From Lachnospiraceae bacterium (GTDB taxonomy: Bacteria > Bacillota > Clostridia > Lachnospirales > Lachnospiraceae), in NCBI GenBank assembly GCA_902363555.1, contig CABJAM010000006.1:370432-402431 (forward strand): 32,000 nucleotides of DNA, given 5' to 3'. A model generated the notes under the pieces. That model saw only the letters and a program-made list of their open reading frames with translations. It searched no databases and was not told the origin of the DNA. The stretch's first letter is position 1, and each line of letters starts with the position of its first letter. This document shows, in pieces, positions 1,177 to 30,390 of this stretch. The position numbers were made by a program, and so were the translations under genes.

Positions 1177-1347
1177 TCACTGTTGCGGGATAAGCCCCCG
1201 GCGCGTGACATACTCCGTTGCAAAACGGCGGTGTTCCGCTTCCTTTTCCCGCCAATACTCCCATAATGCAGCGTCGGCGGCTTCCGCAACATTCATTAAA
1301 AACCGTTCAAGCTGCTTTTGTTTTTCCTCTGCGCTACGTTTCCTCAT
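1177..1347 (-). CDS. Small conserved hypothetical protein (56 aa) overlapping the TraG stop
   Basis: ORF 1177-1452 trimmed to MRKRSAEEKQKQLERFLMNVAEAADAALWEYWREKEAEHRRF... AGGAGG lies 8 nt upstream of the ATG at 1347. It overlaps the end of TraG by 14 nt, typical operon packing. Confidence 0.5.
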   Translation of the reverse strand: MRKRSAEEKQKQLERFLMNVAEAADAALWEYWREKEAEHRRFATEYVTRRGLIPQQ

Positions 1348-3142
1348 GGTCTGCGTCCTCCTGTAAGTCTGCCGCGTCAATCTCGTAATAGTCAAAAACC
1401 TCGTCGGGCTTGACAATGGCGGGGCGGCGTTTAAGGTGCTTTTCCATGTCAAAGGCGTTCTTCGGGTCTGCGTCGGACAGGTACTTGTATTTCGGGTGCT
1501 TCGTTATGTCGAATTTATCCGAAAAGAACGGGCGCACCCCGCGTAGCTGCAAGATACATTTCCCTCCGTCCATGACTGCGATTTCATCTTCCGTCATAAG
1601 CTGCTTTCCCAATTTCTGATAGTTCAGCCCATGCGAAAGCTCCCGCCCCCTTGTTTCGGAAGTGTTGAAGCTGTCTATCGTTTCCTTGCCTAAAATCTCC
1701 GATATTTCTTTGAGCGTCGTTTTTTCCTTGCCGCCCAAGAAAAGCGTGGTGTCGCAGTTGCCGACTATGGTATCGGCGTTGTCCTTGTAGATTGCCTTTA
1801 GCTGTGACTGGCTCTGCAAGATGATTGACGCGGAGATTTCCCGGCTCCGTATGGTGGCTATGAGCTTTTCAAACTTCGGTATCTGCCCGATATTCGCAAA
1901 TTCATCAAGCAAGCACCTTACATGGACGGGAAGCCGCCCGCCGTATTCATCATCTGCTTTGTCGCACAAGAGGTTGAATAGCTGTGTGTAGAGAATACTC
2001 ACGACAAAGTTAAAGGTGTCGTCGGTGTCGCTGATAATCACGAAAAGGGCGGTCTTTCTGTCGCCTATGGTGTCAAGCTCCATTTCGTCGGTTTCCATAA
2101 GCTCCCGCAGCTCCTTAATGTCGAATGGGGCTAACCTCGCGCCGCATGAGATAAGTATGCTTTTTGCGGTCTTGCCCGCCGCAAGTTTGTATTTTTTGTA
2201 CTGCTTGACTGCAAAATGCTCCGGGTCTTTTTCTTCCAGACGTTCAAACATGAGGTCAACCGGGTTCTGGAAATCCTCGTCGTCCTCGCGGGCTTCCGAC
2301 GCATTTATCATTTCAAGCAGCGTCGTGAAGTTCTTCTCGTCCTCCGGGGCTTCATACCAGATATAGCCGATTAGCGCGGTGTAGTAGAGCTTTTCCGCTT
2401 TCACCCAGAAATCCTCGCCGGATTTTTCCCCGTCGCCTTTGGTGTTGGCGATAATGGTATTGACTAACTTCAAAATGTCCTTTTCGCTCCGCAGATAGGC
2501 AAAGGGATTGTATTTCATGGATTTTTTGAAGTTAATCGTATTTAGCACTTTGATACGGTATTTGTACCGCTGTAACATTTTCCCGGTTTCCAAAATCAGT
2601 GTTCCTTTCGGGTCAGTGACGATATACGACGTTGGAAAATCCTTTGACGTACATTGCATGAGCGACGGTTTCACAAAGAACCGGGTCTTGCCGCTGCCGG
2701 AACCGCCGATTACAAGGATATTTTTGTTTCTTGCGTATTTCGGCTGCTTCGGGCGGCTGTTCATGGTGAGCCGTTCCGTCTGTGTTAAGGGAATATTGTT
2801 CTCAAATACCGGGTCGGTGTACGGCTTTATGTCGTCAGCCCCGCCCCAACGCGCCGAACCGTATTCTGTCCCGCGGCGGTATTTCTTCGCGTTCTTGCCT
2901 TTGGTGTAGATAATCAGCCGGACAATGACCGCCCCCGCAATGCCTAAAGCTAAGTCTGCCGGGTGGAAGCTCGGCGCGATACTGGAAAAGGCGGCGGTAA
3001 AACCGTCCCCAAGATGTAGCAGCTTTGCGCTTGCGTCCGCGCCGGGGGAGAGCCGGACAGCCGCGCCCACTTTATCAAAGAGCCAGACAAAGAGCAGATA
3101 CGGGAGATTTAGGATAAGCAGCTTCTTGATTTCCGGCTTCAT
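1334..3142 (-). CDS. traG: Type IV coupling protein, TraG/VirD4 family (602 aa)
   Basis: N-terminal TM helices, Walker A GGSGSGKT, and the DEFANIG / ILQSQSQL motifs typical of TraG/VirD4. It is a paralog of 15161-16951. Confidence 0.9.
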   Translation of the reverse strand: MKPEIKKLLILNLPYLLFVWLFDKVGAAVRLSPGADASAKLLHLGDGFTAAFSSIAPSFHPADLALGIAGAVIVRLIIYTKGKNAKKYRRGTEYGSARWGGADDIKPYTDPVFENNIPLTQTERLTMNSRPKQPKYARNKNILVIGGSGSGKTRFFVKPSLMQCTSKDFPTSYIVTDPKGTLILETGKMLQRYKYRIKVLNTINFKKSMKYNPFAYLRSEKDILKLVNTIIANTKGDGEKSGEDFWVKAEKLYYTALIGYIWYEAPEDEKNFTTLLEMINASEAREDDEDFQNPVDLMFERLEEKDPEHFAVKQYKKYKLAAGKTAKSILISCGARLAPFDIKELRELMETDEMELDTIGDRKTALFVIISDTDDTFNFVVSILYTQLFNLLCDKADDEYGGRLPVHVRCLLDEFANIGQIPKFEKLIATIRSREISASIILQSQSQLKAIYKDNADTIVGNCDTTLFLGGKEKTTLKEISEILGKETIDSFNTSETRGRELSHGLNYQKLGKQLMTEDEIAVMDGGKCILQLRGVRPFFSDKFDITKHPKYKYLSDADPKNAFDMEKHLKRRPAIVKPDEVFDYYEIDAADLQEDADHEET

Positions 3143-3615
3143 AGCGATACCTCCCTGTCCTTGTTCTTGACCTTTGCCCGTTCCGCGTTTCTGCCCTGTG
3201 CAGCTTCTTTGAGGGTAGAGAGCAGCTTTCGGATTGAGGGCTTTTTCTCCTGTGTCAGCTTTTTTGCGGAAAATTCCTTAAAGGCTGCGGTCAGTACGTC
3301 CGCGTCCCGCCCCTTGAAGAAAACCAGATAGCGGGGCGGGCTTTCCGTCGCGTCCTTTTTCAGCGCAAAGTCGATACCGTACTTTTTCGCCGTACTCTCA
3401 AAGGCTTTGATATTGCCCTCGGTAATCTCAATGTTGGAAACGCCCGCGTTCTGCTTCATAAGCTGCTTTAAGCTCTGCTTGCCCTGTGGCGGTTTGGAAA
3501 GCTGTTTTTTTCCCTTTGACAGTATGGCTTTCATTGCCTTTTGGAGCGTCTGGGCGGTCAGCTTCCCGGTCTTGATGTAAAGGGCTATGGTCTTTTCGTT
3601 TACTTCGTCCTGCAA
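3139..3615 (-). CDS. PcfB-like / DUF3801-like conjugation protein (158 aa)
   Basis: TTG start with AGGAGG 9 nt upstream. Lys-rich protein with the FESTAKKYGIDFAL..RYLVFFKGRDADVL core, resembling 13285-14097. Its stop overlaps the TraG start. Confidence 0.7.
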   Translation of the reverse strand: MQDEVNEKTIALYIKTGKLTAQTLQKAMKAILSKGKKQLSKPPQGKQSLKQLMKQNAGVSNIEITEGNIKAFESTAKKYGIDFALKKDATESPPRYLVFFKGRDADVLTAAFKEFSAKKLTQEKKPSIRKLLSTLKEAAQGRNAERAKVKNKDREVSL

Positions 3616-3656
3616 TTTGTCGCGTCCTCCTTTCGCGTTTCTTTATGGGGCGGCGG

Positions 3657-3878
3657 TCAGATACGCACCCGCAGCCCGTTCAAGTCCTCGGCTCTGATAC
3701 CCACAAGATACCAGTTGTCGCCGTACTCAATCCGGGTCGGCTTCCACTTGCCCCGCACGAATACGTCAAAACATTCTCCACAATGCAGCCCGCCATAGTA
3801 GCTGTTTAAGTCAAAGCGGATGTCGTAACGGTCGGTGCGCTCGTCAAATACCAATGCTCCTGTCATTTTCTGTGCCAT
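3657..3878 (-). CDS. Small conserved hypothetical protein (73 aa; DUF5348-like by recall)
   Basis: ORF 3657-3926 trimmed to MAQKMTGALVFDERTDRYDIRFDLNSYYGGLHCGECFDVFVRGKWKPTRIEY..., with a GGAGG RBS upstream of the ATG at 3878. Confidence 0.6.
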   Translation of the reverse strand: MAQKMTGALVFDERTDRYDIRFDLNSYYGGLHCGECFDVFVRGKWKPTRIEYGDNWYLVGIRAEDLNGLRVRI

Positions 3879-3901
3879 AATAAAATCCTCCTTTTGTTGT
3901 T

Positions 3902-4885
3902 TTACAGGCTTTCGCCCGGTTTGCATGAATAATAGTCCGGGTCGCCGTACTGCGGCTTTTTCGGTGACAGTGCGCCGCTTGCCATGTCATGGGCGACAAG
4001 GGAAGTGTAATAATTGCCGATAGTGGACGGGGCGTTGAAAAGGGCTGCTTTCAGATATTGCTTGATGTTGCGGATTTTCGTTGTGTTCTCCCGCATACAG
4101 TCAAGCACAAAGCGGATATGCTCGCCGTCCAGTTTCATAAACTTAGATTTCACAAGCTCTGCCGGGTAGTCGTCCCCTGCAATCCGTACCCGCTTCCTTG
4201 CGGTGCATACGGTTTCAAGCATGAGGTCTACAATCTCGTCAAGCCTGTCACTGTCAAACTTCATGTCCTGTTTGAGAATGTGGTAGTCGATATTGTCCTT
4301 GATGATTTCCCGGTATATATCAACTGCGCTCTGTGCTGCCGCTTCCGTTCCTTTCCGTTCCGGCGGCGTAGCCGCTTCTCTGCAAGGAGAGGGGTTAGGG
4401 GAAAGGATAGGAATGGAATGGGTACTTTGTTCATCAGTAATTATTTTTTCTTTTTTTGGTAAGTAAGTTCTTTGTATATCTTTATTTAATTGCGTTGGAT
4501 TTTCCAACGTAGGTTTTTCCAATGTTGGTTTTTCCTGCGTTGGATTATCCAATGTTGGATTTTCCAATGTAGGTAAATCCGGCGTAGGCGGCTGCGGCTG
4601 CTCGAATATCACATAGTCCGCGCCCCGCAAGCGTCCTTTCTCGTCGCGCTCCCTTGAACGGACGATATACCCGGCGCGTTCAAGCTCCTTAATGGCTTCG
4701 CGGATAGCGTCTATCTTCTCCCGGTTGATAAGGGATAAGCCTTTCAAGGTGTAGTCCCAATCTTCGGGGAGTGACAGCATTTGCGATAACAGCCCCTTTG
4801 CCTTTAGGGAAAGCTCCTTGTTGCGTAGGTGGTGGTTGCTCATTACGGTGTAGCCCTTGTTCCGTTCCACTCTGAAAACTGCCAT
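3902..4885 (-). CDS. Replication-initiator-like protein: N-terminal winged-HTH, PT-rich pentapeptide linker, DnaD/replisome-organizer-like C-terminus (327 aa)
   Basis: The N-terminus reads FRVERNKGYTVMSNHHLRNKELSLKAKGLLSQMLSLPEDWDY, a typical ICE/plasmid rep HTH. A central repeat PTLENPTLDNPTQEKPTLEKPTLENPTQ follows. It is the first gene of the minus-strand module. Confidence 0.7.
   Translation of the reverse strand: MAVFRVERNKGYTVMSNHHLRNKELSLKAKGLLSQMLSLPEDWDYTLKGLSLINREKIDAIREAIKELERAGYIVRSRERDEKGRLRGADYVIFEQPQPPTPDLPTLENPTLDNPTQEKPTLEKPTLENPTQLNKDIQRTYLPKKEKIITDEQSTHSIPILSPNPSPCREAATPPERKGTEAAAQSAVDIYREIIKDNIDYHILKQDMKFDSDRLDEIVDLMLETVCTARKRVRIAGDDYPAELVKSKFMKLDGEHIRFVLDCMRENTTKIRNIKQYLKAALFNAPSTIGNYYTSLVAHDMASGALSPKKPQYGDPDYYSCKPGESL
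4491..4595. repeat. Six to seven tandem 15-bp repeats inside the rep-like gene
   Basis: Units begin at 4491, 4506, 4521, 4536, 4551 and 4566, with a degenerate copy at 4581. Examples: tgcgttggattttcc, aacgtaggtttttcc, aatgttggtttttcc. Confidence 0.85.
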
Positions 4886-5119: not shown

Positions 5120-6928
5120 TTGTCCGTCGCTCGAAAAACCTTGATTTTCCAGTGTTTTCAAAAGTATCGTTATCTAACGTCAGCTTTCCAAAGACCAAGT
5201 TTCCAGAATATGATAAAAGACATTGAAAGCGGTCTGATAAACTGCGTGATTACGAAAGATTTATCCCGTCTGGGGAGAAACTATCTTGATTGTGGGTTAT
5301 ATCTGGAAGTTTTCTTCCCAGAGCATAACGTGAGGTATATAGCGGTCAATGACGGCGTAGATACCTTGAATAAATCTGCTATGGACATCACGCCTTTCCG
5401 CAACATTTTAAACGAAATGTATGCCGCTGACATATCTGTTAAGATAAAATCGGCATATCGGGCGAGGTTTCAACAGGGGAAATTCATGGGAACTACCGCC
5501 CCTTATGGCTATATCAAAGACCCTGCCGACCACAACCATCTGCTGATAGATGATAAAGTGGCACATGTTGTAAAAGAGATATTCGACCTTGCATTAAAAG
5601 GGAATGGAGTTGCCAAAATTTGCAGACATCTTAATAAACAGCATATCCTACGCCCTGCCGCTTATGCGGCGGAGCGTGGCGAAACAGGCTTTGAACGTCA
5701 TTTTGAGGGGAACGAGGACAAACGCTATATTTGGAGTGGGAACAGCGTGAGGAGCATTTTAAGAAGCCCGATATATGCGGGAAATCTTGTAGGCTACAAA
5801 CGGATTGCCGCCAATATGAAAAGCAAGAAACGCCCCTCTAAGCTGCCCGAAGAATGGGAAGTGATACCCAATACCCATGAGGGAATAGTCACGCAGGAGG
5901 AATTTGATATTGTCCAACAGCTTATTACAAGTCGTAGGCTTCCACAGAACAAGGGAGGATTTGTAAATATTTTTGCAGGCGTTATCAAGTGTGTGGACTG
6001 CGGATGTGCTCTGCGGGCAATGAACGTACACAGGAGGAAACGCCCAGAGATTATCGACTGTGTACAGTATTCATGTAATAATTATGCAAGAAACGGAAGA
6101 AGCGAGTGTAGTGCCCACAATATAGAAGCAAGGGATTTATTCAATGCCGTTCTTGCCGACATCAACTGTTTTGCGGATATGGCAGTGAATGATGAAAAGG
6201 CGGTCAGGGCCATAGAAAAGCGGCTCACGGAAACAGACCAGAGCAGGGCGAAAGCATTAGAGAAAGAACGTAAGAAGCTGAACAAACGCCTTGCGGAACT
6301 GGACAGGCTGTTTTCCTCTCTCTACGAGGATAAGGTCATGGAGCGTATTACCGAGCGGAATTTTGAGATGATGTCGGGGAAATACCAGAAAGAGCAGCTT
6401 GAAATTGAAGCAAGGCTGAAAGAGGTGACGGAAACTCTCAGCGACAGCTATGAGAAGACGCAGGGTGTCCGTGATTTCCTCTCCCTAATCCGCAACTATC
6501 AAGGCATTAAGGAACTGGACGCAACCATCATAAACGCACTTATAGACAAGATACTTGTTTCGGAACGTGAGAAACTTACAGACGGAATGGTGCGGCAGGA
6601 AATCAAGATTTATTATAAATTCATCGGCTTTGTCGGTGAATTACATATCACACCGACAAAGCGGTGGACTGCGTTAAAGCCTAAGAATTGTACGGTGTGC
6701 GGTGTTGAATATGTTCCCCGCTCTGGCATATCGAAGTATTGTCCTGCTTGTGCCAAGAAGATACAGAGGGAGAAATCAAACGAGAGCAAACGCAGGAGCA
6801 GGGAGCGAAACAGACAGGCATGTATTGAACTGTCCGCAAAAAATGACCGACTGATTTGGAACAGCGGCAAGGCAGGATTGAAAGACAGGGTAATATGTTC
6901 CCAGAAGTGGAGGTTTACCGCTATGTGA
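5120..6928 (+). pseudogene. Large serine recombinase, 5'-truncated (catalytic N-terminal ~55-60 residues missing)
   Basis: Recognisable homology starts near 5180 (SAFQRPSFQNMIKDIESGLINCVITKDLSRLGRNY). The recombinase domain, the zinc ribbon CVDCGCAL...YSCNNYARNGRSECSAHNI and the coiled coil are present. No YxRVS-type catalytic-serine motif occurs in any upstream frame. The TTG at 5120 is only the start of the open frame. Confidence 0.7.
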
Positions 6929-7794
6929 CCGAGCAGACCTTTGACGCCTACCTCTATCAGCTTGTGGAATCGAAACAGAAATTTATCTCCCAGATAATGA
7001 CGAGCAAAAGCCCCGTGCGTTCCGCCGAGGATGTGGACGAGGTGGCTCTTTCCTTTGCAGAGGTGAAAATGCTTGCCACGGGCGATGAGCGTTTCAAGGA
7101 AAAGATGGACTTGGATATGCAGGTGGCGAAGCTGAAAGTATTGAAGCAGAGCTACCTTTCCGAGCATTATGACCTTGAGGACAGGATACTGAAACACTTT
7201 CCGAGGGAGATAAAGGAGCTTGAGGAACGCATTGTCAGCTATGAAAGCGATACCGCCCTTGCCGAACAGCACAAGCCGCAGGGCGAGGATAAGTTCTGCC
7301 CCATGACCTTAAAGGGCGTGACCTATACCGAGAAAGCGGACGCAGGCGAAATGCTCCTTGCTGTCTGCAAGGAAAATCCGCTGTCAAATCCCGTGGAAAT
7401 CGGCAGCTACCGAGGTTTCAAGATGGAGGTTTATTACGACAGCTTCAACACCCATTACTGCCTTAACCTCTGCGGAAAGGCAAAGCACAAGGTGGATTTA
7501 GGCTCTGATGCTCTGGGAAATCTCACCCGTATTGAAAACGAGATTGGAAAAATCCCTGCCAGACTGGAAGCTGCCAAGACCCGAAAGGCGGAAACTCTGG
7601 AGCAGCTTGCCAATGCAAAGACCGAGGTGTTAAAGCCCTTTGCCTTTGAAGATGAGCTGAAAGAAAAGAACGACAGGCTGAACGCCCTCAATATTGAGCT
7701 GAATCTGGACGAGAAAGACGCTCCTGTTATGGATACCGAGCCAGAGCAGGAAAACGAACAGCCCGAAAAGAGAACACAGGACAGGGAGCGTTAA
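6847..7794 (+). pseudogene. 3' remnant of a large SNF2-family helicase (ICE helicase/methylase type), from helicase motif VI onward
   Basis: The frame opens at 6847 (PTD)LEQRQGRIERQGNMFPEVEVYRYVTEQTFDAYLYQLVESKQKFISQIM, which includes SNF2 motif VI QRxGRxxRxG. There is no N-terminal helicase or ATPase part and no plausible start or RBS. Confidence 0.65.
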
Positions 7795-7838: not shown

Positions 7839-7870
7839 AGGTGACGATAAGAAAAACGGAGGTGAGGAAA

Positions 7871-8200
7871 ATGTCTGATGCGTTCAGATTTGAAACTTTT
7901 GTAGATGTTCACGGCAATATCTTCAACGAATATCTAAGCTCTGTCGTTGCCAGACTGTCGAAAGAGGACGAGGAATACAAAGCCCTGCAAGAAAAGATTG
8001 AAGCCATTTATGAGGAATATCCCAAGGTTTTAGCTGTGTTTGACAGCGAAACGGAAAGCGAGCTGACCGAGAAAGAATGTGCGGCTCTCATTGAGGTAAT
8101 GGAGCTGAAGAATAAGCTCACGGACATGGAGATGCAGGCGGTGTACTTCCGTGGCTGCTATGACAGCGTAGGCTATCTGAAAAAAGCAGGGATTTTATGA
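7871..8200 (+). CDS. Conserved hypothetical ICE protein (109 aa)
   Basis: ORF 7841-8200 trimmed to MSDAFRFETFVDVHGNIF..., with a GGAGGTGAGG RBS. A terminator follows it. Confidence 0.6.
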   Translation: MSDAFRFETFVDVHGNIFNEYLSSVVARLSKEDEEYKALQEKIEAIYEEYPKVLAVFDSETESELTEKECAALIEVMELKNKLTDMEMQAVYFRGCYDSVGYLKKAGIL

Positions 8201-8220
8201 CGGACTGACCGAGAAAAAGG

Positions 8221-8251
8221 ACGGCGTTGGCGTGAAGCTGATGCCGTTTTT
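8221..8251 (+). terminator. Putative terminator of the 7871-8200 gene
   Basis: Arms ACGGC (8221-8225) and GCCGT (8243-8247), then TTTTT. The stem is weak and the loop is long. Confidence 0.35.
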
Positions 8252-8262
8252 ACATAGCTGAG
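8251..8262 (+). repeat. Core repeat copy 1: TACATAGCTGAG
   Basis: Exact 12-mer, identical to 9415-9426 and 11/12 identical to 9921-9932. Confidence 0.9.
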
Positions 8263-8426
8263 ACAGACAAGAACCCCCATAACCCGATTTTTTTCATTGA
8301 TAATCGTAAAAAAGTATTGACAAGCCTCTGCAAAAGGTTTAGTCTGGATAAAAATACCAGAGAACACACATTCTAAAAACACTAAAGATAAAGCACAAAA
8401 AATATGTGCATTTATTTATTGATAGG

Positions 8427-8435
8427 TGTTAGAAT
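8427..8435 (+). promoter_or_regulatory. Extended -10 promoter element TGtTAGAAT for cassette 1, overlapped by an 11-bp inverted repeat
   Basis: TGTTAGAAT at 8427-8435. The inverted-repeat arms are ACACATTCTAA (8366-8376) and TTAGAATGTGT (8429-8439). A second candidate promoter is TTGACA (8317-8322), 17 nt, TAGTCT (8340-8345). Confidence 0.4.
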
Positions 8436-8472
8436 GTGTTTTTTTATTGATTGTTTTAGAGGAGGAAATCTT

Positions 8473-8676
8473 ATGCAAGAGTATTCAATTCTGGAAATTA
8501 ACTTTGAAAAGGGCATCTTAAAAACAATGGAGGGCAGGAATTTTAAGATTGATGTGTTTGATATACCAACGATGGTAGGATGGTGTCCCTGCGAAAATAT
8601 TACATACACAGAGATAAATGGAAGAAAAGTATTAAAGCATTACTCTGGTGTAACTGTAAGATTAAGAGAACAGTAA
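8473..8676 (+). CDS. Hypothetical small soluble protein (67 aa), cassette 1 gene 1
   Basis: ORF 8404-8676 trimmed to the ATG at 8473, preceded by AGAGGAGGA. Sequence: MQEYSILEINFEKGILKTMEGRNFKIDVFDIPTMVGWCPCENITYTEINGRKVLKHYSGVTVRLREQ. I recognise no family. Confidence 0.6.
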   Translation: MQEYSILEINFEKGILKTMEGRNFKIDVFDIPTMVGWCPCENITYTEINGRKVLKHYSGVTVRLREQ

Positions 8677-8691
8677 GGGAGGTGGTTTAGA

Positions 8692-9399
8692 ATGGCATCA
8701 AAGAAGAAAAACAATTTTATAAGGCAAAATAAAATTCCGCTTATTATTTTTACTATCGCAGTAGTTGGTGGGTATGTTGGTATCTATTTGGCGTTCAGAG
8801 GTGACGGCTTTCTTTCAGCAGGAAAGGATTTAACAAAAAGTGACTGGCTTTCTTTTTTGGGGGCATATCTTTCTTTTGTCGGCACAGTTGCAGTCAGTTT
8901 AATTGCACTTTTCCAGAGTAGCTATTATACAAAAGTGGAAAATGAGAGAAGATTGCAAGAACACAGAAAGAAAATTCAACCTATTTTCTTCGTAAATATT
9001 GCATCAATGAATAAGCAGATTGAGGGAACAGGAGAATTCTTCAATCCCTCAGACCCATCAACATACCCAAAGCATAATAATATCAAAATATCTATTGAAA
9101 ACGTGAATAGCTACCCAATAACTCATGTAATTGTCTTTGATAGGTATATTTGTCCTTTGCTAAAATGCAATGAATCTAAAAGCATTGTATGTGCCTATTA
9201 TGATACGGACGATGCAAAAAAATGGGCAAAAAAGCTTATAGTTCTGACAGATGATTTTGAAAGGAATGAACAAGGGATACCGAAGTGGTTTAATATCTGC
9301 TATGAGGATATAGACGGACAAGCTATGTTCCAGACTTTTGAATTAAAGAATTTTGATGGTACACCATACTATTCTCTTGAGGGAATACATGAAACATAA
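8692..9399 (+). CDS. Hypothetical membrane protein (235 aa): two N-terminal TM helices plus a ~155-aa C-terminal domain, cassette 1 gene 2
   Basis: GGGAGGTGG RBS. TM1 is IPLIIFTIAVVGGYVGIYLAF and TM2 is WLSFLGAYLSFVGTVAVSLIALF. The start lies 15 nt after the stop of gene 1. I recognise no family. Confidence 0.7.
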   Translation: MASKKKNNFIRQNKIPLIIFTIAVVGGYVGIYLAFRGDGFLSAGKDLTKSDWLSFLGAYLSFVGTVAVSLIALFQSSYYTKVENERRLQEHRKKIQPIFFVNIASMNKQIEGTGEFFNPSDPSTYPKHNNIKISIENVNSYPITHVIVFDRYICPLLKCNESKSIVCAYYDTDDAKKWAKKLIVLTDDFERNEQGIPKWFNICYEDIDGQAMFQTFELKNFDGTPYYSLEGIHET

Positions 9400-9414
9400 G
9401 CGGAGATTGCAATC

Positions 9415-9426
9415 TACATAGCTGAG
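9415..9426 (+). repeat. Core repeat copy 2: TACATAGCTGAG
   Basis: Exact 12-mer lying between the two cassettes. Confidence 0.9.
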
Positions 9427-9449
9427 TGGTAGAAAAATTCATGGATATG

Positions 9450-9458
9450 TGATACAAT
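9450..9458 (+). promoter_or_regulatory. Extended -10 element TGaTACAAT for cassette 2
   Basis: TGATACAAT at 9450-9458, about 37 nt upstream of the ATG at 9495. Confidence 0.35.
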
Positions 9459-9494
9459 TCCAAGTAGAAATAATAAGTGTTTGGAGGTAAGATT

Positions 9495-9890
9495 ATGCAA
9501 AAGCTAAAACTAAATAAGGATTTTGGTCAGCTTGTAAAGGCTCATGGCTATGAACTTGACCCTACCAAGGAATATATCATCAACATTGAAGATGAACTGC
9601 AAGAACAATCTGGAATCATGGCTGCGGTACAAACAATGGGATTACCTGCATTAAAGGATTACCATAAATGGCTTGCTGATAACAACTTTGATGTCAATAT
9701 GCCTAACCCAACAAATGATTTTGTATCTAAGTTTTATGGAGTAAAGCCTTTATGGACGACTGAATTATCACAAGGAATTGTGGTAAAAGCAGAAAACGAA
9801 GATGATTATTTCATTGTTATGGAATGTAGCAGATTAAATGAGGGATTCAAATATACTCAAATAATCGTTACATTAGGCGGATGCTTATAA
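9495..9890 (+). CDS. Hypothetical soluble protein (131 aa), cassette 2
   Basis: ORF 9477-9890 trimmed to MQKLKLNKDFGQLVKAHGYELDPTKEY..., with a GGAGGT RBS. I recognise no family. Confidence 0.6.
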   Translation: MQKLKLNKDFGQLVKAHGYELDPTKEYIINIEDELQEQSGIMAAVQTMGLPALKDYHKWLADNNFDVNMPNPTNDFVSKFYGVKPLWTTELSQGIVVKAENEDDYFIVMECSRLNEGFKYTQIIVTLGGCL

Positions 9891-9920
9891 GCCGTACTTC
9901 TACATTAAAATATATACCAT

Positions 9921-9960
9921 TACATAGCCGAGAGGTTTTCTTTACCGAAAGCCCCTCGGC
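9921..9960 (+). repeat. Core repeat copy 3 (TACATAGCCGAG) fused to an imperfect 9-bp hairpin
   Basis: 12-mer at 9921-9932. Arms GCCGAGAGG (9927-9935) and CCCCTCGGC (9952-9960) pair at 8 of 9 positions. The structure lies 31 nt upstream of the Toprim gene start. Confidence 0.8.
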
Positions 9961-9991
9961 TAAATTCATTTCTGGAGGTGATTTTATTTGA

Positions 9992-10972
9992 ATGGGAAGT
10001 AACGGCTATGTTCAGTTCGACCCCGCCGTGATTGAACAGGCACGGCAAATCGACCTGCTCTCCTACCTGCAACGGTACGAGCCGAGCAACCTAAAGCGTG
10101 TGGCAGGCAATGTCTACTGCACAAGGGAACACGACAGCTTGAAGATTTCCAACGGCAAATGGTACTGGTGGTCACGGGGCTTCGGCGGCTATTCTGCCCT
10201 TGATTATCTGATGAAAGTCAGAGAGCTTGGCTTCGTGGAAGCCGTGCAGACCCTCACGGGGGACATGGGCGACTGGAAACCGCCGCCCCCTGCCGTGAAA
10301 AAGGACGAACCGAAAGTGTTGCTCCTGCCAGAGAAAAATGTAGACTGCGATAAGGTGACAGAGTATCTTTTCGGGCGTGGCATTGATTATCAGCTCATAC
10401 AGGACTGCATCGCAGAGGGCATTATCTTTGAGAGCAAACCGTACCATAACGCCGTCTTTGTGGGTAAGGACGAAAGCGGAAAGCCAAAATATGCGGCTCT
10501 CAGGAGTACGCTTGGCAGCTCTTTCAGACAGGACGCATCGGGCAGCGACAAGCGGTATTCCTTCCGACTTCTGGCAAGAGAGCCGACAGACAAGGTGCAT
10601 TTATTTGAAGCCGCCATTGATTTACTGTCCTATGCCACCTACCTCAAATGCGAGGGAAAGGACTATAAGGCGGCAAACCTGCTCTCTTTATCGGGCGTGT
10701 ATCAGCCCAAAAAGGAACTCTCTGAGAGCAAAATCCCCATTGCCCTGTCCACTTACCTGCAAAAAAATCCGCAAATCAAGACCGTTATCCTGCACTTGGA
10801 TAACGACAGGACAGGCAGGTTATGTACCGCCGCCCTAAAAGAATTATTGCAGAAAGACTACAAAATCGTTGACGCCCCGCCGCCAGTCGGCAAGGATGTC
10901 AACGATTTTTTAATGTCCTATCTGGGGCTTGCAAGGCAGAAGCCGAGCCGTGAAAGGAGGGATGCCCGTTGA
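9992..10972 (+). CDS. DUF3991/Toprim-domain protein (primase-like ICE protein, 326 aa)
   Basis: N-terminus IDLLSYLQRYEPSNLKRVAGNVYCTREHDSLKISNGKWYWWSRGFGGYSALDYLM. Toprim-like E (HLFEAAIDLLSY) and DxD (LHLDNDRTG) motifs are present. Confidence 0.8.
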   Translation: MGSNGYVQFDPAVIEQARQIDLLSYLQRYEPSNLKRVAGNVYCTREHDSLKISNGKWYWWSRGFGGYSALDYLMKVRELGFVEAVQTLTGDMGDWKPPPPAVKKDEPKVLLLPEKNVDCDKVTEYLFGRGIDYQLIQDCIAEGIIFESKPYHNAVFVGKDESGKPKYAALRSTLGSSFRQDASGSDKRYSFRLLAREPTDKVHLFEAAIDLLSYATYLKCEGKDYKAANLLSLSGVYQPKKELSESKIPIALSTYLQKNPQIKTVILHLDNDRTGRLCTAALKELLQKDYKIVDAPPPVGKDVNDFLMSYLGLARQKPSRERRDAR

Positions 10973-24880: not shown

Positions 24881-26278
24881 TTATGCCAGTATTGGTAATG
24901 TGAGTTTCACTGAGAAGCCACCATAGGAGCTGTGTTCAATATCGGTTCTTCCACCATGTGCGGATACAATCTGCTTTACGATAAGCAACCCTAAACCATG
25001 TCGTTGCTCGGTTGTGTTCTCGTCGCAAAGCATATAATGAGGTGTTTTGTTGAGCTTTTCTATTAACTCATCTGTTGCTCCAACACCATCATCAGAAACT
25101 ATTATAGTACAACAATCATCATCAACCGTAACGCCAATATAGATTTTGCAGCCTTGTTCATTATGATTGATACTGTTTTGAATGAGATTACTGACCGCCC
25201 GTTTTAATAAATCCTTATCAGCGTTTACAGGACATACAGTTAGGACTTCATCTGTTTGCCATTCAATTGGATATTTATCCTCAATATCCATATTGATAAA
25301 ATCAACAACGACTTGGCGAACAATAGCAATCAGATTTTGCTTTGCAGGATTTATCGGCTGCATATTGTACTCTAACTTAGAAGCGAGATTAAGGTCATTG
25401 ATTAAATTCTGCATACGCTTACTTTGTTTTACAATAACTTCCGCCTTATGGCGTTCTTCGTCAGTCAAATTTGTATCATCTTTTAGTTGACCTGCATAGC
25501 CCATAACCATAGACAGAGGAGTTCTAATGTCGTGCGAAACTCCTGCAATCCAGTTTGCTCTGGCAGTTTCCTTTTTCCTTAACTGTTGCCGCTGTTCCTG
25601 CAATATATTAGAAGTCCGATTGATATTGGCAGAAATATCAGAAAGCAGACCTTTTTCTGGAATATGAACAGGCTCTCCGATGGATAAATCTTGTATGCCT
25701 TTTGTAATCGGTTTTACAGGTTTTAAGAATTTCATATTTGCTATCACATAAATCAGCAGGATAACCGCAATATTGACAGCTAAAACAATAAAAACGATTT
25801 GTGGTAAGTGGGCAAAAAAGTTATAGTTCCAACTCGCCCTTGTATGTTTCCAAAAGCTGTCTTTAGGATAGCCAAGAACAACAATGCCATTTTCTGTTTC
25901 GCCTGTGTAAGTAGGATACCCATCGAGATACCCGACAGATAAATCAGCTATATCAGACAATGAGTAATTGGCAGGTATTGTATCAGGAACATTTTCTGTT
26001 TTCCACACGATTTGCAGGGTATCGTTATCAACAACAAATGCCCATATATTTTGTTTTTTTAATTGCGTGGAAATATCTTCCTGCAATGTATATCCGCTTT
26101 CGGATATTTGAAACGCCTTGCCTGTCTGTATTGCCACATTATATGGCGAGTCAGTAACAGATGGCGATTGCCAAGCCATAAGGAACGCTAATATAGCAAA
26201 ATTAGCAAATACCAACAGCACGAAGCTCAACAAAAGAATACCCGTAAAACGCCGTATGAGTTTAGGTAAATTGTTCAT
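24881..26278 (-). CDS. Sensor histidine kinase (two TM helices, HisKA and HATPase_c domains; 465 aa)
   Basis: ORF trimmed to MNNLPKLIRR. H-box ANWIAGVSHDIRTPLSMV, N-box LIQNSINHN, and G-boxes DDGVG and GLGLLIVKQIV. The ATG lies 1 nt after the RR stop. Confidence 0.85.
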   Translation of the reverse strand: MNNLPKLIRRFTGILLLSFVLLVFANFAILAFLMAWQSPSVTDSPYNVAIQTGKAFQISESGYTLQEDISTQLKKQNIWAFVVDNDTLQIVWKTENVPDTIPANYSLSDIADLSVGYLDGYPTYTGETENGIVVLGYPKDSFWKHTRASWNYNFFAHLPQIVFIVLAVNIAVILLIYVIANMKFLKPVKPITKGIQDLSIGEPVHIPEKGLLSDISANINRTSNILQEQRQQLRKKETARANWIAGVSHDIRTPLSMVMGYAGQLKDDTNLTDEERHKAEVIVKQSKRMQNLINDLNLASKLEYNMQPINPAKQNLIAIVRQVVVDFINMDIEDKYPIEWQTDEVLTVCPVNADKDLLKRAVSNLIQNSINHNEQGCKIYIGVTVDDDCCTIIVSDDGVGATDELIEKLNKTPHYMLCDENTTEQRHGLGLLIVKQIVSAHGGRTDIEHSSYGGFSVKLTLPILA

Positions 26279-26279
26279 G

Positions 26280-26978
26280 TTATCTGCCCTCCACAATCAG
26301 TTTGTATCCCAATCCTTTTATTGTTACCAATGAAACAGGTTGTGAGGGATTTAACTCTATTTTCTCTCTGATACGGCGGATATGTGCCATTAAAGAATTT
26401 TCATATCCGAATGGATTATCCCCCCATGCAGCTTCGCATAAGGTATCAATCGTTACAATTCGTCCTGCATTGCGGTATAAGGCAGATAACAAATCATGCT
26501 CTTTTGCGGTCAATGGAATATGCTCTCCGTTTTTTATTACTTCGGCTCGTGAAAAGTCAATTTGGCTTCCATGAAGTTTAACAAGCGGATTTTCATCTTT
26601 GTAACTTCTTCTTAAAATTGCTCTAATGCGGAATAGCAGTTCCTTTGGTAAAAATGGTTTTACAACATAATCGTCTGCCCCAAGACCGAACCCCTTGAAC
26701 TTATCATCATCTTCGCCGCAGGCAGTTAAAAATAGTACTGGATATTCACCTTTTAATTTTTCCATTAAAGAGAAGCCATCGCCGTCTGGAAGCATTACGT
26801 CAAGAATAGCAAGCTCTGGTTGAAAACTATCTGCCAAATCAAGAGCCTCTTTTACTGTTTTGGCAGTTGCTATTTGGCAAAAGCCTGCTTCTCCTAAAAT
26901 TGATACAACCATATCTAAAAGCTCCTGTTCATCATCGACAAGCAGTATGCGTTTACTCAACAAATAATCGTTGTTCAT
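26280..26978 (-). CDS. OmpR/PhoB-family response regulator (232 aa)
   Basis: ORF 26280-27203 trimmed to MNNDYLLSKRILLVDDEQELL with an AAAGGAGG RBS. Receiver motifs are DD, LAILDVMLPDGDG and K in VVKPF. The winged-helix C-terminus reads LTAKEHDLL...IRRIREKIE...IKGLGYKL. Confidence 0.9.
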   Translation of the reverse strand: MNNDYLLSKRILLVDDEQELLDMVVSILGEAGFCQIATAKTVKEALDLADSFQPELAILDVMLPDGDGFSLMEKLKGEYPVLFLTACGEDDDKFKGFGLGADDYVVKPFLPKELLFRIRAILRRSYKDENPLVKLHGSQIDFSRAEVIKNGEHIPLTAKEHDLLSALYRNAGRIVTIDTLCEAAWGDNPFGYENSLMAHIRRIREKIELNPSQPVSLVTIKGLGYKLIVEGR

Positions 26979-27045
26979 AAGACAACCTCCTTTGCAATTT
27001 ACATTATACCATAAAGCTATGAACTTTTTTAGCCCAGCAGAAAAA

Positions 27046-27064
27046 GTAAGGTAAATGTAAGGTA
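27046..27064 (+). promoter_or_regulatory. Direct repeat GTAAGGTA-n3-GTAAGGTA (11-bp spacing): candidate response-regulator box upstream of the ABC operon
   Basis: Copies at 27046-27053 and 27057-27064 sit in the divergent RR/ABC intergenic region. A weak promoter, TTGCCA (27074-27079), 17 nt, CATAAG (27097-27102), lies just downstream. Confidence 0.4.
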
Positions 27065-27122
27065 GAGAGAAGGTTGCCACAAGGTCGGTGCTGTACCATA
27101 AGGACAGAAAGGAGATGTTGCT

Positions 27123-27890
27123 ATGAACAACTATATTATCAAAACAGAGCAGCTGACAAAAAAGTACAAATCTTTTGTTGCTGTCAATGATGTTTCGCTG
27201 CATATTCGGAAAGGGAGTATTTATGGCTTCTTAGGTCCGAACGGTGCAGGAAAATCCACTACAATGAAAATGCTTTTAGGGCTTACTGCCCCGACAAAAG
27301 GCAGCTTTGAAATTGACGGTAAACAGTTCCCGAATGACCGTCTTTCTATCTTGAAAGAAGTTGGTTCTTTCATTGAGTCGCCGTCCTTTTACGCAAACTT
27401 AACAGGCAGAGAAAACTTGGATATTATAAGGCGTATTTTGGGATTGCCCCAAAGTGCTGTTGAGGACGCATTAGAATTGGTAGGTCTTTCAGAGTTTGGA
27501 AACCGCCTTGCAAAAAAATACTCATTGGGTATGAAGCAGAGATTAGGACTGGCAGGTGCGTTGCTTGGCAGACCTCCTATTTTGATTTTGGATGAGCCGA
27601 CAAATGGACTTGACCCGTCTGGCATACATGAAATCCGAAATCTGATTAAATCGTTGCCTAATCTCTATGATTGTACCGTTCTTATTTCCTCTCATATGCT
27701 GTCTGAAATTGAGCTGATGGCAGACGATATAGGAATACTCAATCATGGGCGTTTGCTTTTTGAAGGCAGTCTGGATAGCTTGCGTCAAAATGCAATACAG
27801 TCTGGATTTGCTGCTGATAATCTGGAAGATATGTTCCTAACTATGGTTGATAAGGATAATGCAGGCAGGAAGCAGAGGGCGATATTATGA
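27123..27890 (+). CDS. ABC transporter ATP-binding protein, lantibiotic/antimicrobial-peptide protection (LanF-like) type (255 aa)
   Basis: Walker A GPNGAGKST, signature YSLGMKQRL and Walker B ILILDEP. Two ABC-2-type permease genes follow. Confidence 0.9.
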   Translation: MNNYIIKTEQLTKKYKSFVAVNDVSLHIRKGSIYGFLGPNGAGKSTTMKMLLGLTAPTKGSFEIDGKQFPNDRLSILKEVGSFIESPSFYANLTGRENLDIIRRILGLPQSAVEDALELVGLSEFGNRLAKKYSLGMKQRLGLAGALLGRPPILILDEPTNGLDPSGIHEIRNLIKSLPNLYDCTVLISSHMLSEIELMADDIGILNHGRLLFEGSLDSLRQNAIQSGFAADNLEDMFLTMVDKDNAGRKQRAIL

Positions 27891-28612
27891 GGGCGTTATC
27901 TATTGAGTTGCGGAAAGAAAAAAGAACAGGCGTTATCCCGTTAATGCTTGCGGTTGGAGTTTTGGGTGCGGCATACGCACTTGTAAACTTTATTGTACGG
28001 AAAGATACGCTGCTTAATTTGCCGTTAGCTCCTATGGATGTTCTTCTTACGCAGGTTTATGGCATGATTATGGTATTAAATATGTTTGGCATTATCGTTG
28101 CTTCCTGTATCATTTATAACATGGAATTTAAGGGAAGTGCCGTGAAAAAGATGTATATGCTGCCAATGAGTGTTCCCGCTATGTATTTTTGTAAGTTTTT
28201 AATTTTGACAGTCATGCTTTTACTTGCCATAGGCTTGCAGCACTTAGCTCTTGCTAAAATTGGAATGACAGATTTGCCAGAGGGAACATTTGAACTTGGA
28301 ACGCTGCTGTCTTTTGCAGGATATTCTTTTACTACATCAATGCCCGTATTAGCTTTTATGCTTTTCGTATCCTCTCGATTTGAAAATATGTGGATACCTC
28401 TTGGCATTGGAGTGGCAGGCTTTTTAAGTGGAATGGCGTTAGCGACATCAAATATAAAATGGTTATGCGTCCATCCGTTTGTAGTTATGCTGAAGCCTGC
28501 CGTTGCGACGAACGCACAGCCAGATATGACTATTGTAATAATTGCATTGATTGAAACAGCCGTCTTGCTTTTTGCAGGATTATGGACAGCAAAAAATCTG
28601 CGTTATGAATAG
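27887..28612 (+). CDS. ABC-2-type permease, LanE/MutE-like (241 aa)
   Basis: The ATGA start overlaps the ATPase stop. About six TM helices and no soluble domain. Confidence 0.7.
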   Translation: MRALSIELRKEKRTGVIPLMLAVGVLGAAYALVNFIVRKDTLLNLPLAPMDVLLTQVYGMIMVLNMFGIIVASCIIYNMEFKGSAVKKMYMLPMSVPAMYFCKFLILTVMLLLAIGLQHLALAKIGMTDLPEGTFELGTLLSFAGYSFTTSMPVLAFMLFVSSRFENMWIPLGIGVAGFLSGMALATSNIKWLCVHPFVVMLKPAVATNAQPDMTIVIIALIETAVLLFAGLWTAKNLRYE

Positions 28613-28623
28613 GAGGTGCCGAT

Positions 28624-29388
28624 ATGAGTTTTTTGGAATTACTCAAAATTGAATTTATGAAAGTTAAGAGAGGTAAAATTGTTCCTTTGATTTTCATTGC
28701 CCCGATATTGGTAGTAGCTTCTGGTATTGCAAATCTGCAAAGCTATTTTACGCCCGAATACACCAATGCTTGGGCAGCAATGTTTATTCAAAGTGCATTA
28801 GTATACGCCTATTATTTGCTCCCATTTAGTATGATTGTTGTTTGCGTAATGCTTGCAGGACGTGAAACGGGAAACAACGGAATATTAAAAATGTTGGCGT
28901 TACCTGTTAGCCGATATGCACTTTCCGCTGCAAAATTTTGTGTGTTGCTATTCTATTTGTTCATGGAAATGGTTGTGTTTCTTGGTGTATTTGTTATTGC
29001 AGGATTGATTGCAACGAAAAGTGCAGGAATTACGGAAACATTACCCATCATGTATTTACTGAAATGGAGCGTCGGTCTGTTTCTTACCATGCTTCCGAGT
29101 GTAGCAATCATGTGGGCAATTACAGTATTGTTTAGCAAACCGCTGCTTTCTGTCGGATTGAACCTGTTGCTTGTCATTCCCAGTGTCTTAGTAGCAAACA
29201 CACCACTTTGGATTGCTTATCCCTATTGTTATAGCGGCTATTTAGTTTCGTGTTCTTTACATGATTTTAGCGTAGGAAGTGATAGTACAGCTTTTCAGCT
29301 ATTTCCGTTTTTGCCATGTGCGATTTTAATTTTTATTTTGGTACTTGTAGTGGCGGTGACACGCTTTGGAAAAAAAGAAATGAGGTAA
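28624..29388 (+). CDS. ABC-2-type permease, LanG/MutG-like (254 aa)
   Basis: GGAGGTG RBS. About six TM helices. It is the second permease of the FEG-type arrangement. Confidence 0.7.
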   Translation: MSFLELLKIEFMKVKRGKIVPLIFIAPILVVASGIANLQSYFTPEYTNAWAAMFIQSALVYAYYLLPFSMIVVCVMLAGRETGNNGILKMLALPVSRYALSAAKFCVLLFYLFMEMVVFLGVFVIAGLIATKSAGITETLPIMYLLKWSVGLFLTMLPSVAIMWAITVLFSKPLLSVGLNLLLVIPSVLVANTPLWIAYPYCYSGYLVSCSLHDFSVGSDSTAFQLFPFLPCAILIFILVLVVAVTRFGKKEMR

Positions 29389-29395
29389 TACGATT

Positions 29396-29692
29396 ATGGA
29401 AAATAAAAAATTCAAAAAACTGAGTATAGCGGCAGTTCTCATTAGTGTATTGCCGTTGGCGACTTTTATCCCATCCTTTCTGAGTATTACATTATCTGAT
29501 GGAGTGCGTTCGGTCTGGGCAGGTGTAAATATATTGTCTGTATTGATTGGGTTTGTTCTATCCGTTATTTGCGTTAAAAATCACGATAGCAGAAATGCTG
29601 TAAATATTATTGGGACGGTTATCAGTAGCCTATGGCTATTACTTATATGTGGTATTCTCGCACTTGCAGTATTCCTTAATTTTATTCAGTAG
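29396..29692 (+). CDS. Small three-TM membrane protein (98 aa)
   Basis: Starts 8 nt after the permease stop. Three hydrophobic helices. I recognise no family. Confidence 0.55.
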   Translation: MENKKFKKLSIAAVLISVLPLATFIPSFLSITLSDGVRSVWAGVNILSVLIGFVLSVICVKNHDSRNAVNIIGTVISSLWLLLICGILALAVFLNFIQ

Positions 29693-29707
29693 AGAGGTAT
29701 TCTAAAT

Positions 29708-30202
29708 ATGAGAAAAATATTTGGCTCTATAGTACTTGTATTGTGTTTGGCATTTTGCGTTGCAGGGTGCAGTTCCAATCATAATAAAGGAAATCTCAAA
29801 GATAATTTGATTGATGGGTGGGATAGCTGGATGCAATCATACAGTAAACACGCATTAACTAAAGAAAAGGATTTACAAGGTAAAAAGGAAGATGGTGTAG
29901 ATACCTATACAGGTACTTATACGGCTACCTATGATGGATTTAACGGAAAAGAATTTATTTTTGGCGGAACGTCTTTAGAGCGAGATAATGGAAATTGTCT
30001 GCAAGTAACCTATAAATTAAGCATAATTGAAGGAACGGCTGAACTGAATTGGATTACAGGCAACGACGAATATACGATTGTCAACGATTCTTCAGAAAAC
30101 ACAAAGGAATACACTATTTCGCCAGGAGATAATTATATCGTCTTGAAAGGAGAAAATTTTAGTGGCAGCCTTGAATTAACAGTTGAAGATGCTGAGGATT
30201 AG
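29708..30202 (+). CDS. Lipoprotein (164 aa)
   Basis: Signal peptide with lipobox: MRKIFGSIVLVLCLAFCVAGC|SSNHNKG. GAGAGG RBS. Confidence 0.7.
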   Translation: MRKIFGSIVLVLCLAFCVAGCSSNHNKGNLKDNLIDGWDSWMQSYSKHALTKEKDLQGKKEDGVDTYTGTYTATYDGFNGKEFIFGGTSLERDNGNCLQVTYKLSIIEGTAELNWITGNDEYTIVNDSSENTKEYTISPGDNYIVLKGENFSGSLELTVEDAED

Positions 30203-30390
30203 GAAATTTATTGTGTATGCAACTGCGGGTGTTGGCGGTGTTTTAATATGGATACTGCTGATACCCATAGGCATACTCACAATTCTAATTCAGTTTGTTT
30301 GAAAATTTACAGACCACATTATCTGTTAGGACGACAGATGAAAAAAGTATGCTGACAGATAATGAGCTGAAATAAGGAGGTGGCGAATTT

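Follow-up and report, generated by a model that had tools for sequence, protein, structure and literature searches.

The window analysed here (32,000 nucleotides (nt) of contig CABJAM010000006.1 from a Lachnospiraceae bacterium) is part of a Clostridia integrative and conjugative element (ICE), in which a small cassette of two open reading frames (ORFs), encoding proteins of 67 and 235 amino acids (aa), lies between the backbone genes DUF6664 and DUF3991-Toprim. The point of interest of this cassette is its larger protein, which belongs to a widespread, uncharacterised family that joins two transmembrane (TM) helices (2TM) to a β-sandwich and has TIR-fused cousins; it is not a two-gene system. 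Judged from its relatives and its predicted structure, the 2TM and β-sandwich family is a promising candidate for a new form of abortive-infection defence by a single protein. In the reading that we favour, with a confidence somewhat short of even, the 235-aa gene encodes a stand-alone membrane sensor-effector of the abortive-infection type, which is analogous to AbiC/AbiP, PdpSau and Cap15 and is carried as swappable ICE cargo. An earlier note on this DNA had described a pair of small protein and 2TM effector with a possible link to known antiphage systems or to entry exclusion. Loci and proteins used for comparison are cited below by their L and P numbers.

A family of two-helix membrane proteins with a C-terminal β-sandwich

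The two genes and the domains of the larger protein are as follows.

8473-8676, + strand: gene for a 67-aa soluble orphan protein (dN/dS, relatives search, family scans)
8692-9399, + strand: gene for the 235-aa protein with 2TM and β-sandwich (homologue searches, AlphaFold2 (AF2))
8731-8976, + strand: N-terminal membrane module, comprising TM1 (aa 14-35), outer loop, TM2 (aa 49-72) and cytoplasmic stalk (aa 73-95)
8977-9396, + strand: C-terminal cytoplasmic β-sandwich, aa 96-235 (AF2 domain model, hhalign)

The 67-aa ORF has a ribosome-binding site (RBS), GGAGG at 8461-8465, 7 nt 5′ of its ATG, and the 235-aa ORF begins 15 nt after it with its own RBS, GGGAGGTG, at 8677-8684. An alternative 90-aa form starting at 8404 was dropped in favour of the ATG at 8473, which has an RBS before it. 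The ORFs, RBSs, 15-nt gap, extended −10 element, inverted repeat and sequence boxes listed in the earlier note are all present where it placed them.

Searches with the 235-aa protein returned 138 full-length homologues at E < 1e-50, all lacking Pfam domains, and the family profile matches 542 representative clusters in an exhaustive library. Members of the family occur in gut Clostridia (Lachnospiraceae, Ruminococcus, Faecalibacterium and Acutalibacteraceae). The exact protein of the window is recorded in approximately 1,500 assembly blocks, mostly from human-gut public data, and its three-gene arrangement is constant in all loci read.

The protein had been described as two N-terminal TM helices followed by a C-terminal domain, and this is borne out by hydrophobic peaks at approximately aa 25 and aa 64 and by the AF2 model (pLDDT 85), which was built from an alignment of 49 sequences. 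In the model, TM1 (aa 14-35) and a short loop helix are followed by a long helix (aa 49-95) that provides TM2 and a stalk, and by a β-sandwich (aa 99-234). Modelled alone, the sandwich reaches a pLDDT of 92.7 and a pTM of 0.84. Counts of lysine and arginine are 5.2 in the N-terminal tail, 2.5 in the loop and 6.1 after TM2; by the positive-inside rule, both termini, and hence the sandwich, are therefore predicted to be cytoplasmic. Conservation peaks in the outer loop and TM2 (GxGFxxxGxDLxKxDWLSFLGAYLSFxGT), with residues Y32, F35, G44, D51, W52, L53 and F55 invariant, and TM2 is rich in small residues. The outer loop and TM2 thus appear to be conserved beyond the needs of a passive anchor.

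The homology searches and structure predictions proposed earlier yielded confident AF2 models, but neither a family model nor a structural neighbour. Foldseek against the PDB, with the full and the domain model, gave no fold neighbour at E < 1e-3 (best E = 3e-3), and a sequence-profile search of the PDB returned nothing. The Foldseek matches at E ≥ 3e-3 comprise generic immunoglobulin (Ig)-like and Kir-channel-like topologies only and were set aside; a K+-channel reading is out, the inter-TM loop being of approximately 15 aa with no pore helix before a filter motif. Scans of the three proteins encoded in the slot with Pfam, NCBIfam, PADLOC and PHROGs yielded no more than weak matches that reflect TM composition (Anoctamin, PycTM, SLATT_4, RexB and DUF2207_C), which were dropped as inconsistent over the 49 family members. 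In BFVD, the architecture as a whole recurs in three proteins of 251-291 aa encoded by phages (E = 1e-7 to 5e-6).

Independent exchange of the two modules

Some relatives match the family profile over the β-sandwich only. These include the TIR_2 proteins P0177, P0196, P0233, P0255 and P0257, and others that carry YobI-type NTPase fragments or a DUF4062-like head (P0262, in which the head is a reading of the sequence with no Pfam match). Alignment of the family with P0196 by hhalign scores 99.6% (E = 2e-24) over aa 96-230, and the TIR and linker head of P0196 itself occurs with many alternative C-termini. A second set of proteins (P0245-P0274) matches the 2TM module only and carries other unannotated, β-rich C-termini; here hhalign of the family against P0254 scores 99.1% (E = 2e-18) over aa 15-91. 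At the level of sequence, these reciprocal matches show the 235-aa protein to consist of two modules that recombine independently in nature. Because a TIR domain swaps for the 2TM hairpin on the same sandwich, the TM part is probably the equivalent of an effector.

The genomic company of these proteins is consistent with a role in genetic conflict, the direction in which the earlier note had pointed. Genes for TIR and β-sandwich proteins adjoin AbiH and a DEAD helicase, or Nmad3. Homologues with the 2TM module also lie near Vsr/methylase and KptA/HD genes, and at the edges of integrative and mobilisable elements (IMEs); they occur in IMEs without a type IV secretion system (T4SS) and in chromosomal islands. 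A survey of homologue neighbourhoods, which had been suggested as a check, found islands with AbiH, restriction-modification (RM), Fic and kinase genes. Together with the TIR fusions and with the ThsB-like and KAP NTPase cargo described below, these islands support the proposed direction.

Upstream partners of the membrane-protein gene

A conserved pairing with a small protein did not survive the comparison of loci, since genes of the 235-aa family follow at least ten unrelated upstream genes, which vary by lineage, and the 67-aa gene is rare. The upstream neighbours of the 2TM gene include the following.

L007 (2TM gene product 79% identical): 173-aa protein with a C-terminal TM helix
L014, L015: metallophosphoesterase, adjoining KptA and HD_4
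L018-L021: HTH_3 regulator at an IME edge
L024, L025, L027: Fic/DOC
L028: 1562-aa Eco57I/ResIII enzyme
L030: HNH_2
L031: APH-type kinase
L033, L034: DUF4379 zinc-finger proteins, with Vsr/methylase adjoining
L035: Ser/Thr kinase

The two-gene pair is therefore not the unit that is conserved.

One could ask whether the protein is instead an accessory subunit, which as a generic tether or adaptor in the membrane would localise or gate the upstream enzymes (Fic, kinase, HNH, RM) and do no killing of its own. Its position would suit such a role, as at most loci the gene lies 10-30 nt from a co-directional upstream gene, whatever the kind of that gene, and frequently in a 3′ position without a promoter. 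However, the upstream genes have no common domain to bind, the gap widens to 180-235 nt at some loci, and the sole partner in L018-L021 is a helix-turn-helix (HTH) regulator. The exchange of the TM part for a TIR domain likewise argues that this part is an effector equivalent, and we regard the adaptor explanation as improbable.

The 67-aa gene and its leader

The 67-aa protein is soluble, as had been proposed: it has no hydrophobic segment, with a hydropathy (KD19) peak of 0.62. To judge from its pattern of substitution, the ORF is a real gene under purifying selection, because the ratio of nonsynonymous to synonymous substitution rates (dN/dS) over four diverged copies is 0.05-0.19 in frame versus 0.5-2.7 in a shifted frame. 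Only 8 close relatives were found among 5.8 billion proteins, and the 67-aa protein has no match in Pfam, NCBIfam, PADLOC, PHROG or the PDB. The gene accompanies the 2TM gene only in copies at least 91% identical (window, L120 and L023). In L118 (859-1732), on another ICE backbone, a 75%-identical copy with the same promoter and leader precedes a gene for a DUF4062-like protein; the 67-aa gene and its leader therefore behave as a portable front-end for different effector-like genes.

The upstream region contains these elements.

8296-8302, 8316-8322, 8418-8424 and 8446-8452, + strand: four ATTGA[TC][AT] boxes (shuffle test)
8317-8345, + strand: conserved promoter P1, with −35 TTGACA (8317-8322), 17-nt spacer and −10 TAGTCT (8340-8345)
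8363-8376 and 8429-8442, + strand: arms of an inverted repeat, with a small hairpin (8393-8409) between them (repeat search, shuffles, folding)
8427-8435, + strand: extended −10 element (P2), TGTTAGAAT, overlapping the right arm of the inverted repeat

The extended −10 element had been listed as part of the promoter region of the cassette. It is present; the promoter conserved in four relatives is P1 instead. The TTGACA of P1 is invariant in the window, L118, L119 and L120, and its −10 reads TAGTCT in the window, TATAAT in L119 and TATTCT in L118. P1 was missed by the promoter pattern scan, the window form of its −10 agreeing at just 3 of 6 positions. The window and L023 alone retain the TG of the extended −10, which L118, L119 and L120 have lost; in L023, P2 reads TGTTATAAT and is stronger than the window form. 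The four boxes are non-random (4 observed versus a shuffle mean of 0.2; 0 of 1000 shuffles reach 4), but only the box at 8316, which is the −35 itself, is fully conserved among relatives, those at 8418 and 8446 being partly conserved and that at 8296 not.

The core of the inverted repeat (ACACATTCTAA at 8366-8376 and TTAGAATGTGT at 8429-8439) pairs exactly over 11 bp, or at 93% over 14 nt. Its presence and its overlap with the −10 element agree with the original description, and it is non-random by shuffling: when the 210 nt upstream were shuffled by dinucleotide, 14 of 1000 sequences reached 11 bp. Transcripts from P1 would carry the repeat as a 5′-leader stem. The leader RNA (8352-8475) folds at −27.4 kcal/mol (z = −3.97), and changes in the right (3′) arm among relatives are A to G with G-U pairs preserved, one pair being compensatory. 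Rfam has no match within 8150-10050. The repeat is either an operator pair or a 5′-leader RNA stem, between which four sequences cannot separate, and the variation of the arms appears to fit RNA pairing better than a palindromic operator.

These observations bear on whether the cassette is an addiction module resembling a toxin-antitoxin (TA) system, with a holin-like 2TM toxin and a 67-aa antitoxin that doubles as autorepressor at the inverted repeat, which would stabilise the ICE. The small gene 15 nt 5′ of the membrane-protein gene, the non-random repeat overlapping the −10 element, the joint travel of the pair in the window, L120 and L023, and the occurrence of the 67-aa gene before another effector-like gene in L118 would all suit such a module. 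Against it, the pairing is not conserved, and in relatives of at most 79% identity other genes, or enzymes of 170-1560 aa, stand upstream; no antitoxin or DNA-binding family matches the 67-aa protein; the ATG of the 67-aa gene reads ATT in L023, in which the 2TM gene is intact; and the arm changes suit RNA pairing more than a palindromic operator. We consider an addiction module unlikely, to a degree similar to that of the adaptor. Under the sensor-effector reading, the 67-aa protein is tentatively taken as a cassette-specific regulator or inhibitor.

A cargo slot in the ICE backbone

Upstream of the cassette lie genes for a serine recombinase (5120-6928) and DUF6664 (7841-8200), and downstream those for DUF3991-Toprim (9992-10972), a NikA-like protein, relaxase, DUF3801 and a type IV (T4) coupling protein. 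GC content at 8200-10000 is 35%, compared with approximately 50% in the backbone. The interval is organised as follows.

8228-8246, + strand: terminator-like hairpin and T-run ending the DUF6664 gene (terminator scan)
8250-8262, + strand: boundary repeat copy A, TTACATAGCTGAG, left edge of cassette 1
9414-9426, + strand: boundary repeat copy B, CTACATAGCTGAG, between cassettes 1 and 2
9427-9919, + strand: cassette 2, with a slot promoter and a 131-aa orphan gene (9495-9890)
9920-9932, + strand: boundary repeat copy C, the 5′ arm of the slot-end hairpin
9926-9961, + strand: slot-end hairpin before the DUF3991-Toprim gene, its 5′ arm being the boundary repeat

Cassette 1 is flanked by direct repeats of approximately 13 nt, TTACATAGCYGAG (8250-8262 and 9414-9426), and the three copies of TTACATAGC(T/C)GAG at 8250-8262, 9414-9426 and 9920-9932 coincide with break points in related elements. 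In the sister ICE L007, backbone homology stops at 8263 and restarts at 9920, and only 8810-9430, comprising most of the 2TM gene, is shared in between. Because the break points coincide with the boundary repeats, cassette 1 is defined as 8263-9426. The proposal of a self-contained accessory unit is thus upheld (low GC, direct repeats, missing or replaced in sister ICEs), with its borders moved from 8317-9399. The terminator-like hairpin at 8228-8246 is kept in all sister ICEs, directly before the boundary repeat. Cassette 2 is absent in L007 and L120, both of which share the 2TM gene; its promoter, GGTAGAAAAATTCAT..TGTGATACAAT at about 9430-9458, is the standard slot promoter (promoter scan), and its acidic 131-aa protein has no Pfam, NCBIfam, PADLOC or PHROG match.

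The same DUF6664/DUF3991 site was surveyed in 80 metagenomic sister ICEs (L038-L117). The slot is empty in 4 of the 80, where approximately 125 nt and a single repeat copy remain. Filled slots hold 0.5-3.6 kb of cargo with a GC content of 29-38%, nearly all on the + strand; the exceptions on the minus strand are three short ORFs of 57-96 aa. Repeat copies number cassettes plus one in many loci, and some slots hold two cassettes in an array. The majority of cassettes in sister ICEs open with a shared promoter (ACATAGCCGAGAGG-TAGAAAAATTCAT-N7-TGGTATAAT), and cassettes are delimited by ACATAGCCGAG repeats that form an 11-14-nt half of the slot-end hairpin. Over 26 ICEs, 90% of cells in this hairpin are paired, with 14 compensatory cells versus 5.2 in shuffles (0 of 500 shuffles reach 14), and many copies are followed by a U-rich tract and so are terminator-like. 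No dedicated recombinase or cassette-associated integrase was identified for the slot cassettes, and the serine recombinase at 5120-6928 adjoins the backbone.

Cargo of the slot includes a full-length ThsB-type TIR protein (PADLOC, E = 6e-107), the KAP NTPase candidate PDC-S49 (E = 5e-57), a DUF4062-TraG-like ATPase, a trypsin-like protease and many proteins without assignment. As judged from its gene content, the slot is a cargo hotspot that is rich in defence-type genes and not exclusive to them. A literature search found no papers on DUF6664, nor on ICE hotspots and defence in Lachnospiraceae.

Two further slot contents were noted in the survey. In L085 (2163-3574), a 151-aa protein with an N-terminal TM helix is followed by the full-length ThsB-type TIR protein (ThsB1, E = 6e-107) with no canonical ThsA, and these genes may form a Thoeris-like pair with a novel small membrane effector. 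The 151-aa protein and a 233-aa TM/β slot protein of L074 were tried as relatives of the 235-aa family and set aside, as hhalign was not significant. In L069 (6508-8616), and also in L059 and L067, a slot protein of approximately 700 aa fuses DUF4062 to a TraG/VirD4-type coupling-protein ATPase, which suggests a defence protein derived from conjugation machinery.

The location on an ICE, between backbone genes and upstream of the primase-like, NikA and relaxase block, also invites a conjugation-related membrane role, such as entry or surface exclusion (a common function of small membrane proteins), or a different task as cargo, for instance anti-defence early in the recipient. However, some sister ICEs leave the slot empty and others fill it with unrelated cargo, which argues against a backbone function, and chromosomal islands and IMEs that lack a T4SS also carry homologues. 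Topology prediction places the large domain in the cytoplasm, and TIR fusion is typical of defence and not of exclusion. Entry exclusion, as suggested in the earlier note, is accordingly unlikely, and roles of this kind are the least probable of those considered here, with very little weight given to them.

A proposed membrane sensor-effector

Returning to the reading of the 235-aa protein as an abortive-infection sensor-effector, the β-sandwich would be the sensing or oligomerising part, which recognises a phage or plasmid product or a small ligand, and the 2TM hairpin would be the killing part, interchangeable with an NADase-type TIR domain. On activation, the TM hairpins would oligomerise and so depolarise or permeabilise the membrane. 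The invader would be stopped at the cost of the cell, and the host lineage of the ICE would be protected. The 67-aa protein would be a lineage-specific front-end, most likely restraining the effector by transcriptional control or as an inhibitor, and not a universal partner.

Several points weigh against this proposal. No PADLOC, Pfam, NCBIfam or PHROG model was accepted for the 235-aa protein, which leaves guilt by association and domain logic as the grounds for a defence role. The β-sandwich has no recognisable ligand pocket or solved relative in PDB searches, and neither the phages of INPHARED and the plasmids of PLSDB (tblastn) nor IMG/VR (scan) yielded a sequence homologue. The 2TM hairpin could be a mere anchor, and the tight spacing to many enzyme-like upstream genes might mean that the 2TM gene serves those genes. 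Finally, some of the slot cargo is metabolic (PhzF, isochorismatase, phosphoribosyltransferase (PRTase) and FAD oxidoreductase).

A broader proposal is that the 2TM and TIR β-sandwich proteins together form an undescribed family of single-protein immune sensors in gut Firmicutes, in which one domain drives either membrane rupture or NAD+ destruction, and that the slot is a new cassette-exchange site, with a promoter in every cassette and half-copies of the slot-end hairpin as borders, that shuffles defence genes among ICEs very common in the human gut. This we find rather doubtful, if clearly less so than the adaptor or addiction explanations.

If the 235-aa gene is a defence gene, it would count among the unannotated defence genes that circulate more widely in the gut mobilome, and would influence the movement of phages and plasmids through Lachnospiraceae and their relatives. 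Effector swapping can be studied in this family as a clean natural experiment, one sensor domain being placed on a TM hairpin or on a TIR domain. The slot, for its part, brings together in compact form candidate defence genes of anaerobic Firmicutes, which discovery screens centred on E. coli and Bacillus serve poorly.

Other features of the window

A second low-GC cargo block (37-40%) lies at 24881-30726. It encodes a histidine kinase and response regulator (minus strand), an ABC ATPase, two ABC-2 permeases, two unassigned proteins and a lone receiver domain, and by its gene content it resembles a module for sensing and export of peptide antibiotics. To the left of the serine recombinase, at 1334-4885 on the minus strand, a second T4 coupling protein (602 aa) and a DUF6017/HTH_36 protein suggest an adjacent or nested second mobile element. 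Upstream of DUF6664, a 312-aa ORF (6856-7794) is free-standing in the window, whereas in sister ICEs it is the C-terminus of a 2766-aa SNF2/methyltransferase/LPD25 giant protein (L001, 1-5103); the backbone therefore has forms with and without the giant gene.

Comparison with known systems

The closest likeness of the 235-aa protein is to single-gene abortive-infection proteins. Of the lactococcal proteins, AbiC has two TM helices, and AbiP has one TM helix and a nucleic-acid-binding domain (PMC13064643). PdpSau from a S. aureus prophage combines a TM part with a cytoplasmic domain resembling an oligonucleotide/oligosaccharide-binding (OB) fold and causes membrane depolarisation on infection (PMC10127798). 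The layout of an N-terminal TM part and a cytoplasmic domain, carried singly on a mobile genetic element, is also predicted for the 235-aa protein, which like these proteins is Gram-positive, has an extra-membrane β-rich domain and is of similar size (about 230-340 aa). It differs in its C-terminal domain, an Ig-like sandwich for which PDB Foldseek shows neither an OB fold nor any sign of nucleic-acid binding, and in the conservation of its TM hairpin and outer loop, which goes far beyond that expected of a simple anchor. AbiP and PdpSau were compared by description, no PADLOC Abi model matching at E ≤ 1.

Effectors of the cyclic-oligonucleotide-based antiphage signalling system (CBASS) and of the pyrimidine cyclase system for antiphage resistance (Pycsar) join one sensor-like domain to either a TM hairpin or a TIR domain. 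Cap15 and PycTM pair a 2TM part with a β domain that binds a ligand. The 235-aa protein resembles them in design only, with a 2TM hairpin, a small β domain and a sandwich that is also TIR-fused. The PADLOC PycTM model matches 2 of 49 members, at E ≥ 4.9e-4 and over the TM region only, the NCBIfam SLATT_4 model gives E = 0.16 against a 55-bit cutoff, and no family member has a Cap15 or SLATT match in Pfam or PADLOC. No nucleotide cyclase (CD-NTase/PycC) is found in the window cassette or in approximately 20 homologue loci, and the fold neighbours in PDB Foldseek include no domain that binds cyclic nucleotide monophosphates (cNMP) and no Cap15 barrel. The link to CBASS-type systems suggested in the earlier note is thus one of architecture only; membership of CBASS, Pycsar or SLATT fails on both profile match and adjacent cyclase.

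A type II-like TA system would be expected to keep its small gene and toxin together, and such co-occurrence is not seen across the family. Of the operator and its ligand, a non-random inverted repeat is present, and the 67-aa protein has no family or PDB match. The strict backbone linkage expected of an exclusion protein is likewise not seen, the slot being empty or holding other cargo in sister ICEs.

The slot itself invites two comparisons. Its cassettes are like those of integrons in their boundary repeats; unlike these, each slot cassette is headed by a promoter of its own, and no integrase was found with the cassettes. ICEs of the SXT/R391 group have variable hotspots for cargo and defence genes. 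Whereas the cassettes described here are bounded by half-hairpin repeats and mostly open with one shared promoter, the slot resembles those hotspots as a fixed intergenic backbone site that is empty in some elements and in others holds alternative low-GC cargo, much of it defence-like.

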